The position numbers and the translations under genes are program-made. From contig JAPPQC010000053.1 of NCBI GenBank assembly GCA_028817225.1, positions 8,709 through 72,708 on the forward strand: a stretch of 64,000 nt of DNA, given 5' to 3'. This DNA comes from Gammaproteobacteria bacterium. Lineage in GTDB: Bacteria > Pseudomonadota > Gammaproteobacteria > Poriferisulfidales > Oxydemutatoraceae. The notes below the pieces were generated by a model. It made no database searches and was not told the origin of the DNA. It worked only from the letters and a program-made list of their open reading frames with translations. Shown piece by piece: positions 31,336-32,282 of the stretch; position 1 is the stretch's first letter; each line of letters begins with the position of its first letter.

Positions 31336-31436
31336 CGGCGCGCCGGCCAGCGCCGGAACCCGCCCGGCGAACACCCCGAAGCCCCTTGCACGGCGGCAAA
31401 ATGGCACTGCCACAAGTCGTTGAACGGATAGTTGAA

Positions 31437-31463
31437 TTGACAGGGAAAAGGGCGTGGTATAGA
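31437..31463 (+). promoter_or_regulatory. Putative sigma70-type promoter of NHLP-family gene 3
   Basis: TTGACA (31437-31442), a 15-16-nt spacer, then TGgTATAGA (extended -10). The spacer is short, so this is tentative. Confidence 0.3.
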
Positions 31464-31629
31464 TTGCGGATACAAGCCCGCAGGTGCGTTTTTCGGGGCG
31501 GTTGCGGGCAATACAGGAGGAAGGGGCGCAGTGTGCGTGGTGTGCACAGTGTCAATCGTCAATCAGACGGCGTCAGCGTTTTTTTCGGCGCCGGATTAAT
31601 CCGCAATTCAAGTGGAAGGAGGAAAAGAA

Positions 31630-32190
31630 ATGGATGTTGGCGCGAAAACGGGATTCGAGATTCCGCTGTTCAATGAGGTCGCGGCGATTTATATCGGCTG
31701 CGGCCTGACCAGCCCGGAGGCGGATCCGAAATTCAAGGCCGCGCTGGAAGATTGCCTGCCCCGCCTTGAGAAAGTTGATGTGGTGTACAAGCAAAACACC
31801 GCGAATGAAGTGAATATCGTGGTGCCGAGCTTTCCGCAGTATGACGGCGAATTACAGCGGTTGACCGAGCAGCAGATAGAAAAAATAACCGGCGGCGCTT
31901 TTGAAATCGTCGGTATCGTCGGTATCGTCGGCGGCATCGGCGTCATGCTGATTGGCGCGGGCGGCGTGACCGCTGTCGGCGCCACCGGCTCGGTCGCGAG
32001 CGTCATGCTTTTTGGCACTGTCATCGGAGTGAATGCAGCCGCTGTTGCGGCGGGCGCCGCTGCCGTCGGCCTGGCCGCCGGCGCCGGCATCGTGGCCGCC
32101 GCGGTGGTTTCGACCGCAGTCGGTCTCGGCATCGCCGCCGGCGCGGGCGCCTTCAACTCCGGGCCTGTCAGCGTCGGACACGCCAGTTAG
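31630..32190 (+). CDS. NHLP-type leader / Gly-Gly precursor with a 97-aa Gly-Ala-Val-Ile core (family copy 3), inserted between ruvA and ruvB
   Basis: AAGGAGGA SD 8 nt before the ATG at 31630. Leader: [22 protein letters not shown]...[23 protein letters not shown]...[12 protein letters not shown]. Core from 31897: [23 protein letters not shown]...[23 protein letters not shown]. Confidence 0.85.
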
Positions 32191-32210
32191 GTTCGGCCAA
32201 CCTTCTTTCG

Positions 32211-32238
32211 GGCGGGAGGCCGCAAGCCGCCTCCCGCC
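32211..32238 (+). terminator. Stem-loop after NHLP gene 3
   Basis: GGCGGGAGGC-N8-GCCTCCCGCC is a perfect 10-bp GC-rich stem, with no strong U-tract. Confidence 0.45.
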
Positions 32239-32282
32239 TGCCGCCGCCGGGCGCATCGTGCCGGGCATATAATAGGGGGCTT

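Follow-up and report, generated by a model that had tools for sequence, protein, structure and literature searches.

What is the gene that separates ruvA from ruvB by 947 bp (31336–32282) in a gammaproteobacterial genome, how did it come to lie there, and what does it make? The question arises from 64,000 nucleotides of contig JAPPQC010000053.1 (assembly GCA_028817225.1, positions 8,709 to 72,708), referred to here as the window; its features are on the forward strand unless the reverse strand is named. The source organism is a sponge-symbiont gammaproteobacterium of the Candidatus Porisulfidus lineage, a lineage of gammaproteobacterial sponge symbionts (PMC12988363). RuvA relatives among species-representative genomes are found in the sponge metagenome-assembled genome (MAG) RKSI01 PNGst_S_binSS2 (98% identity; GCA_007570905.1, locus L006), the complete, 1.83-Mb ‘Ca. 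Porisulfidus sp.’ chromosome OY843752 (87%; L007) and ‘Ca. Oxydemutator sp.’ (78%; L008). A preliminary description of this DNA had seen in the spacer an NHLP-family gene, brought in by an autonomously spreading, moron-like cassette. We consider it fairly probable, on the sequence comparisons set out below, that the spacer's open reading frame (ORF) is a working precursor belonging to a lineage-restricted family of NHLP-like (proteusin-type) peptides that are modified in trans.

The precursor gene is real, and it evolves fast. The ORF (31630–32190) encodes 186 amino acids, which divide into a leader of 89 (31630–31896) ending in ITGG and a core of 97 (31897–32190, with the stop codon) closed by the conserved tail GPVSVGHAS, so that the lengths given in the preliminary description are borne out; the core is the longest of its family within the window, although not overall, since the relative P0035 has a core of 100 residues. 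In composition the core is A25 G22 V18 I8, with one Glu, one His and two Asn. The ORF is intact in all four orthologous loci (the window, L001, L002 and L006), with cores of 96–97 residues, and its nonsynonymous divergence (dN) between the window and L006, L001 and L002 is 0.10–0.125, as against 0.009–0.035 for yebC, ruvC, ruvA, ruvB and tolQ, or roughly 3–13 times that of the neighbouring genes. The ratio of nonsynonymous to synonymous divergence (dN/dS) is 0.36–0.50 for the leader and 0.68–1.09 for the core, compared with 0.08–0.36 for the neighbours, whose dS among the four genomes is 0.06–0.12. AlphaFold predicts a leader of two helices, two strands and two further helices (pLDDT, the per-residue confidence score, 63–83; 62 when the leader is modelled alone) and an unstructured core (pLDDT ~30).

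This leader–core plan is that of a family. A profile of the leaders, used with a word search, gathers 40 protein clusters of 150–200 residues, none with a Pfam domain. When 1.84 billion representatives were searched exhaustively with HMMER, 118 clusters were recovered at E≤1e-3, against 37 at E≤1e-10; the family is restricted to this lineage and few relatives. All sampled members consist of a leader, a GG and a hydrophobic, Gly-rich core; an N-E pair near the N-terminus, an N-T-A in a predicted strand and the G-G are invariant, Q and P positions are nearly so, and the tail GIAAGxGAF...PVNVGHAS is also conserved. The invariant GG falls exactly at the domain boundary, in an L-x-x-I/V-x-GG context. 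The family carries the signature of NHLP leaders (about 70–100 residues, a ..NT.d.vhlVlP.. strand and an L..eeL..v.GG end), and 12 of 34 members match the NHLP leader model TIGR03793 at E≤0.01 (best E 1.1e-7). The best match of the leader profile in the PDB is 8tb1_A, annotated ‘NHLP leader peptide family natural product’ (E 0.021), with the whole leader aligned and the alignment passing through ENTA..VNLVLP...LSDEDL..VTGG.

The window holds three complete copies of the family and a fourth that is cut. Paralogue 2 (16103–16817; motif 16103–16120, ORF 16242–16817) lies between glnB and a DUF6231 gene, and paralogue 3 (20080–20695; motif 20080–20097 with one mismatch, ORF 20168–20695) between a major facilitator superfamily (MFS) gene and purN; of paralogue 4 only the C-terminal part remains (63829–64000, reverse strand), ending ...GILTNVNICT at the window's end, and its NINICT tail recurs in the copy between yebC and ruvC of L006 and in P0061. 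Every copy examined stands alone among housekeeping genes, the sites being dcd-glnB/DUF6231, MFS/purN-purM, thyA/lgt, metX-metW/bioC and pyridine nucleotide-disulphide oxidoreductase/ftsK.

What ties these scattered genes together, and to a set of candidate enzymes, is a motif of 18 nt with the consensus GTTCAGAAACCTTTGKCA (GTTCA-N8-TG[GT]CA). Upstream of the ORF it reads GTTCAACGACTTGTGGCA, a match to GTTCA-N8-TGKCA on the reverse strand (31408–31425), 11 nt before the −35 hexamer, and differs by a single base across the four orthologous loci. With up to three mismatches allowed, the window contains exactly three matches, one upstream of each complete family gene, a number reached in 0 of 100 shuffles. 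Of about 32 exact matches in the 866 kb examined, none is in the 80 unrelated gammaproteobacterial ruv loci, 19 are upstream of dispersed family genes, 12 are at an enzyme operon (upstream of its YcaO gene, or between its epimerase and that operon's own precursor) and one is inside a family gene. The orientation before the operon's own precursors is the same as before the ORF, and over all sites the motif occurs both ways round, which suits a regulator site; it is probably bound by a transcription factor, and one regulator probably controls the dispersed genes and the enzyme operon alike. No better argument than this common motif is at hand for placing the dispersed proteins in the pathway of the enzyme operon. 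Two other readings of the motif, a sigma-54 promoter (TGGCAC-N5-TTGC) and the −35 element of an extracytoplasmic function (ECF) sigma factor, were rejected by eye for misfit of spacing, and a scan of metagenome contigs gave, among the at least 120 loci listed, none with a family member, its hits being chance matches.

The operon in question pairs a YcaO protein with a PoyD-type epimerase, and lies about 5.5 kb from the metX family copy in two Porisulfidus genomes. The pair occurs in OY843752 and in ERZ22155170; the YcaO protein is a fusion of a ‘TOMM precursor leader peptide-binding’ part and a SagD-type part (TIGR03604, 267 bits; cut-off 219), and the ERZ22155170 epimerase is a PoyD-family radical-SAM (S-adenosylmethionine) protein scoring 320.6 bits against TIGR04517, just below the cut-off of 325. 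It is found again on RKSI01000083 (L091), as a compact cluster at 2171–7096 of YcaO (805 residues; TIGR03604, 275 bits, also TIGR03882), epimerase (500 residues; TIGR04517, 323.9 bits) and two NHLP-like precursors, with further occurrences in L092–L096 and at 16173–20550 of L086. RKSI01000083 belongs to MAG GCA_007570905.1, which is also the source of L006, and the enzyme pair is therefore present in the window's species. A PoyD-family epimerase, one mark of a proteusin system, is thus found in the genome that supplies L006, though not in the window itself; the other mark, a precursor beside its modifying enzymes, is not found for the dispersed genes, whose link to the enzymes is the shared motif. 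Two further features of L091 may be recorded here. One of its operon precursors ends ...GGPDTTVTLEA, resembling the PVTVTLAS and PVNVGHAS tails of the dispersed family. Divergent from the YcaO operon, at 191–1894 on the reverse strand, is a protein of 567 residues with matches to SLFN_AlbA_2, HATPase_c_4 and HTH_24, and the motif lies in the intergenic region between the two. This protein is a candidate regulator, but in OY843752 it is not adjacent to the operon.

Taken together, these elements suggest how the system may work. The structured 89-residue leader, terminating in a double-glycine cleavage motif, would present the almost uncharged Gly/Ala/Val/Ile core of 97 residues to enzymes encoded elsewhere, namely a fused E1-like/YcaO cyclodehydratase and a PoyD-family radical-SAM epimerase; removal of the leader at the GG, with export, would then release a long hydrophobic peptide that is probably membrane-active. 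Each genome would deploy at least six to seven such dispersed single-gene units, each with its own promoter and stem-loop and tied to the enzyme operon by the 18-nt motif. The unit in the window would have entered the ruvA–ruvB gap after the split from Ca. Oxydemutator and been inherited vertically in the window's species thereafter, and copies would multiply by segmental duplication while their coding parts diverge quickly.

A number of observations weigh against this explanation. The ORF itself has no match in Pfam or NCBIfam, TIGR03793 at E≤0.01 included; no reported family member reaches the TIGR03793 cut-off of 50.9 bits, the best paralogue scoring 29.7; and Foldseek comparison of the full-length and leader-only models, both of low confidence, with the PDB returned nothing below E=1 and no NHLP structure. 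Because the ORF is without a model match and all TIGR03793 scores in the family are below the cut-off, the leader is called NHLP-like only: judged by sequence it is a distant relative, not a certified member, and the earlier family label, for which there are sub-threshold matches of paralogues, is retained in this weaker form. A strongly conserved C-terminal tail is unusual for the core of a peptide made on ribosomes and modified after translation (RiPP), and the family's cores, with 0.6% Cys and about 2% Asn, are without the Asn-rich pattern of channel-forming proteusins. The operon on RKSI01000083 has adjacent precursors of its own (148 and 126 residues) with different cores, rich in Cys, Ser, Thr and Gly, and so could do without the dispersed family as its substrate. 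Within the window's 64 kb no RiPP enzyme and no exporter is encoded, the operon having been seen only in the conspecific MAG, and no N-methyltransferase, leader peptidase or peptidase-containing ATP-binding cassette (ABC) exporter was seen in the window or the loci read, although no whole-genome search was made.

How the gene came to lie where it does can be followed by comparing ruv loci. In the window, ruvC (30260–30757; TIGR00228, 159 bits), ruvA (30754–31335; TIGR00084, 196 bits) and ruvB (32283–33323; NF000868, 527 bits) were assigned with NCBIfam equivalog models; the ruvC stop and ruvA start overlap as ATGA, and this overlap and the wide gap after ruvA are as first described. The gap between ruvA and ruvB was measured in 85 loci, 80 of them the unrelated gammaproteobacterial ones. 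It is shorter than 100 bp in most of the 80, which supports the earlier statement that the two genes are normally adjacent, but this is not universal: four loci (L028, L038, L048 and L063) have gaps of about 2 kb (1.9–2.2 kb), the one examined, that of L028, being occupied by a kup K+ transporter gene, and the ruvA–ruvB junction therefore tolerates insertions in other lineages too. In the sister genus Oxydemutator about 61 bp separate the two genes; the window, L001, L002 and L006, whose RuvA proteins are 96–98% identical, have gaps of 903–1006 bp holding the same gene; and OY843752 has one of 1754 bp. Because of the short Oxydemutator gap, the insertion into a tight ruvCAB unit is, on these comparisons, derived within the Porisulfidus lineage; it is fixed in the window's species and not recent. 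The other paralogue groups likewise stay in place and in synteny from one species to another. The gap occupants of OY843752 are 34–37% identical to the window's leader, compared with 46–51% for paralogues elsewhere on that chromosome (the neighbour-joining tree of the leaders is short and unsupported, and is read only alongside these pairwise identities), so the shared occupancy is not simple orthology; replacement, independent insertion and extreme divergence could each account for it. That the gene lies between ruvA and ruvB is best regarded as a curiosity and not as a functional link to recombination.

The means by which copies multiply are most legible in OY843752, where the yebC-ruvC-ruvA-ruvB region (L007, 2680–6340) contains three family genes, one in the yebC–ruvC gap and a tandem pair in the ruvA–ruvB gap. 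The 126 nt before the first ruvA–ruvB copy, comprising the ruvA 3′ end and the motif, recur before the second at 93% identity; a ruvB 5′ fragment, GCCCATGTCCATGTCAGCCAA, is repeated between the tandem copies and upstream of ruvC; and stretches of 109 and 86 nt on the 3′ side of the yebC–ruvC copy match those on the 3′ side of the first ruvA–ruvB copy at 95% and 88%. The flanks are 88–95% identical, and the coding parts, where alignable, 72–78%. Since the duplicates carry pieces of ruvA and ruvB, the process is one of ordinary segmental duplication; as far as sequence comparison can trace them, the copies are segmental duplications that carried host gene fragments with them, followed by fast coding divergence.

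A related history is visible upstream of ruvC. Among near-identical genomes the yebC–ruvC gap varies in length: the window has 96 bp, L001 and L002 have 88 bp, and L006 has 871 bp (2621–3494), where a cassette of about 780 bp, opening with the motif and ending past a stem-loop, is inserted exactly between ...GCGCCGCC and GGGTATAAT. At 30187–30227, upstream of ruvC, the window has a fragment resembling the −10 element and first codons of ruvB, GGGTATAAT-N10-CATGTGGATGCCAGCCAAC. Its own similarity to the ruvB start is weak (a score of 26, equalled by the best of 300 shuffles), but in L007 the orthologous segment unmistakably duplicates the ruvB 5′ junction (repeats D5 and D6), and the fragment is present in all genomes of the Porisulfidus lineage and not in Oxydemutator L008. 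It is probably the scar of a sister cassette that was lost, or never retained, by the window's strain. Peculiar to the window's gap (30167–30259) is an additional CCTTTCTG, similar to the 3′ half of the stem-loop in the L006 cassette and possibly a deletion remnant. Small promoter-bearing genes, it appears, can settle inside ruvCAB without a mobile element and leave recognizable scars when lost.

Three other explanations deserve to be weighed against a precursor modified in trans. The peptide might be unmodified, in the manner of a microcin or class II bacteriocin, with a peptidase-containing ABC exporter cutting at the GG and the motif denoting co-regulation only. Eight of 34 family members match TIGR03949 (class IIb bacteriocins, lactobin A/cerein 7B) weakly, and paralogue 3, with 21.9 bits, just passes the cut-off of 21.5, its match confined to the GG junction and the first part of the core; a core of 22% A, 21% G and 17% V, nearly free of Cys, fits unmodified Gly-rich bacteriocins as well; and the enzyme operon, as noted, is already supplied with precursors. 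However, the ORF does not match TIGR03949 and, with a leader of 89 residues, has neither the score nor the short double-glycine leader by which class IIb is recognized; leaders of 85–110 residues with a predicted fold are unlike double-glycine leaders of 15–25; no exporter gene lies beside any of about 15 copies examined; and a motif held in common with the epimerase operon and its precursors speaks for a shared pathway. We regard an unmodified peptide as unlikely. It is less plausible still that the product is not secreted and is a small membrane protein, in which a cytoplasmic NHLP-like domain would be anchored by three or four glycine-zipper helices, with immunity, sensing or scaffolding among its possible roles. 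A hydrophobic region of 75–100 residues is long enough for several spans and contains GxxxG-type runs, the tail (P)VNVGHAS is conserved to a degree unusual for hypervariable RiPP cores, and the copies are many per genome and conserved in position; against these stand the placing and context of the invariant GG at the domain boundary, a core dN/dS that rises to about 1, the absence of confident core helices from the AlphaFold model and the lack of charged loops between the putative spans.

The third alternative, that of the preliminary description, is a recently acquired and autonomously mobile moron-like cassette, and it is in our view highly improbable. The composition that suggested it is real in part: GC content is 0.53–0.56 over 31400–31900 as against 0.68–0.745 in the flanks, but the second half of the ORF, encoding the core, returns to a flank-like 0.70. 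GC at third codon positions (GC3) is likewise lower in the precursor gene (0.69–0.77) than in the ruv genes (0.88–0.92). However, low GC and GC3 are found also in paralogues resident since before the species split, and are therefore a family trait and no mark of recent import. The self-contained make-up of the unit, the sister cassette between yebC and ruvC that L006 has and the window, L001 and L002 lack, and the low identity of the OY843752 gap occupants all count in its favour. But a search of the surroundings of the window's unit found no integrase, transposase or other mobility gene, no target duplication, no terminal repeats and no ruvA or ruvB fragments, only GC-rich chance matches; the gene is present in all four conspecific loci at the neighbour divergence given above, whereas a mobile cassette should have defined ends, target duplications or mobility genes, and presence and absence among close relatives. 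The synteny of paralogue groups across species, the confinement of the family to this lineage and few relatives, and the host gene fragments dragged along by the traceable duplications all speak against autonomous spread. Alignment of the empty Oxydemutator spacer with the ends of the window's spacer, as a way of placing the insertion boundaries, gave a score of 20 where the shuffle maximum was 21, and was set aside. In one Porisulfidus strain (L086, 4798–6558), an insertion sequence (IS)-type transposase ORF (HTH_32, rve) stands immediately upstream of a family copy, with which it is in open frame; it is not at the same place in L005.

The precursor proposed here has its own control elements, and the earlier account of a self-contained unit, with promoter-like site, ribosome-binding site, gene and hairpin, is upheld: the block from 31401 to about 31470, which includes motif and promoter, is almost invariant in the four orthologous loci, while the DNA directly after the ruvA stop is indel-rich. 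A sigma-70-like promoter is predicted at 31437–31465 by scan and conservation (TTGACA, 31437–31442; a 17-nt spacer; TAGATT, 31460–31465), matching 10 of 12 consensus positions, where the scan found 2 sites and 0.2 were expected. It overlaps the TGGTATAGA of the preliminary description, whose TTGACA stands but whose TATAGA (31458–31463) would leave a short spacer of 15 nt. The Shine-Dalgarno sequence is strong, as had been stated; it is read directly as AAGGAGG at 31616–31622, 7 nt before the ATG at 31630, and is kept in orthologues. The hairpin beyond the gene is real as well, although its perfect GC stem measures 11 bp, not 10, with an 8-nt loop (32210–32239 instead of 32211–32238) and no U-tract downstream; the stem is maintained in orthologues with G–U changes. 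A search of the spacer against Rfam found nothing, either at gathering thresholds or at E≤1. The 5′ leader of the precursor mRNA, of about 165 nt, contains two short hairpins, each followed by a T-run (31464–31493 and 31567–31595), the second partly kept in orthologues and neither matching Rfam; these might attenuate transcription.

An insertion of this kind raises the question of how ruvB is now transcribed, for which read-through of the hairpin or a new promoter had been suggested. A TATAAT (32268–32273), followed by AGGGGG, lies 9 nt before the ruvB ATG and is kept in the window, L001, L002, L006 and L007; it is found also before ruvB in the insertion-free Oxydemutator L008, 13 nt from the ATG, so that no new ruvB promoter need be invoked. 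Going by these sequences, ruvB likeliest had, and keeps, a −10 element of its own, with read-through possible in addition, and an insertion within ruvCAB would be tolerable because that element was already there. TATAAT occurs 12 times in the window, at 66% GC, compared with about 3 expected by an estimate from base composition; among the sites are 32268, 30194, 45369, 41349, 28692 and 14002/14014, several of them 9–45 nt upstream of starts. Before ruvB, and apparently before a multicopper oxidase gene, the TATAAT is about 10 nt from the start and would give nearly leaderless transcripts.

Elsewhere in the window, an ORF of 495 residues (955–2442) with a DUF2779 and an RNase_H-like domain has a GC3 of 0.58, markedly below the rest of the window, and may be foreign DNA. 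At 19930–20010, upstream of paralogue 3, about three tandem repeats of GTAGGCGGGGGC follow the stop codon of the MFS/Atg22-like gene. A rhomboid-family intramembrane protease is encoded at 55549–56319; no other membrane protease was seen in the window, and there is no evidence of a link between this one and the GG-containing hydrophobic proteins.

Beyond the single gene, a more ambitious picture may be sketched, which we hold to be possible but doubtful: in a sponge symbiont of reduced genome, a regulon of at least six dispersed proteusin-type peptides of 75–100 residues, about twice the length of polytheonamide, epimerized in trans by one PoyD/YcaO operon under one regulator, settling in the gaps of essential operons by segmental duplication, with cores under positive selection, and forming a membrane-active arsenal that has gone unrecognized. 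If so, the cores would greatly exceed in length those of every characterized channel-forming proteusin, and their source would be an uncultured sponge symbiont whose genome is about 1.8 Mb. With the motif, the members of the regulon can be listed in full, and the regulator sought, by a direct route.

Among known systems, the channel-forming proteusins (polytheonamides, PoyA/PoyD; aeronamide, AerA/AerD) share with the present family a long NHLP-type leader ending in GG, a core in which Gly, Val, Ala and Ile abound and a PoyD-family radical-SAM epimerase in the genome, and the polytheonamide system shares the sponge-symbiont setting too (PMC9060474, PMC12426817). Their cores are of about 46–49 residues, with Asn N-methylated by a PoyE/AerE-type enzyme (PMC9060474), whereas those of the family have 75–100 residues and almost no Asn (97 residues with two Asn in the ORF), and no N-methyltransferase was seen, the enzyme operon having none. 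The family differs further in that its precursors are dispersed far from the enzymes, its C-terminal tail is conserved, its leader falls below the NHLP cut-off, the enzyme partner is a YcaO cyclodehydratase and the modification is a predicted one. The srp proteusins, widespread across sponges, likewise combine NHLP-type precursors with YcaO in sponge symbionts (PMC9426513, PMC10858898), but theirs are compact clusters in which the enzymes that form azolines and brominate lie beside the precursors, and the present family is dispersed, with hydrophobic, nearly Cys-free cores. Class IIb bacteriocins (TIGR03949) and Gly-rich class II microcins resemble it in the double-glycine motif followed by a Gly/Ala-rich hydrophobic peptide; unlike them, the family has a leader 4–5 times longer and predicted to fold, and no dedicated exporter or immunity gene adjacent, and the ORF is without a match. 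Phage morons are comparable as single genes with their own promoter and stem-loop between two genes of an operon, but the present unit has no phage or mobile context, is inherited vertically and would be part of a chromosomal regulon.

The organization has a parallel in the prochlorosins, for which many scattered procA precursors in small marine genomes are reportedly served in trans by one ProcM enzyme. Prochlorosins have Nif11-type leaders, a lanthionine synthetase and short cores rich in Cys, Ser and Thr; the present family, by contrast, has NHLP-type leaders, an epimerase and YcaO. As with prochlorosins, the precursors are dispersed, the long leaders are conserved and end in GG, the cores diverge and there is one enzyme locus; we know of no shared upstream motif for prochlorosins. 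Should the dispersed genes prove to be true substrates, we would have a proteusin system organized as prochlorosins are, with scattered precursors and one enzyme locus. By analogy, then, the organization resembles that of prochlorosins and the chemistry that of polytheonamide-type proteusins, and the family is set apart from both by the length of its cores, its conserved tail, its dispersal and its shared motif.

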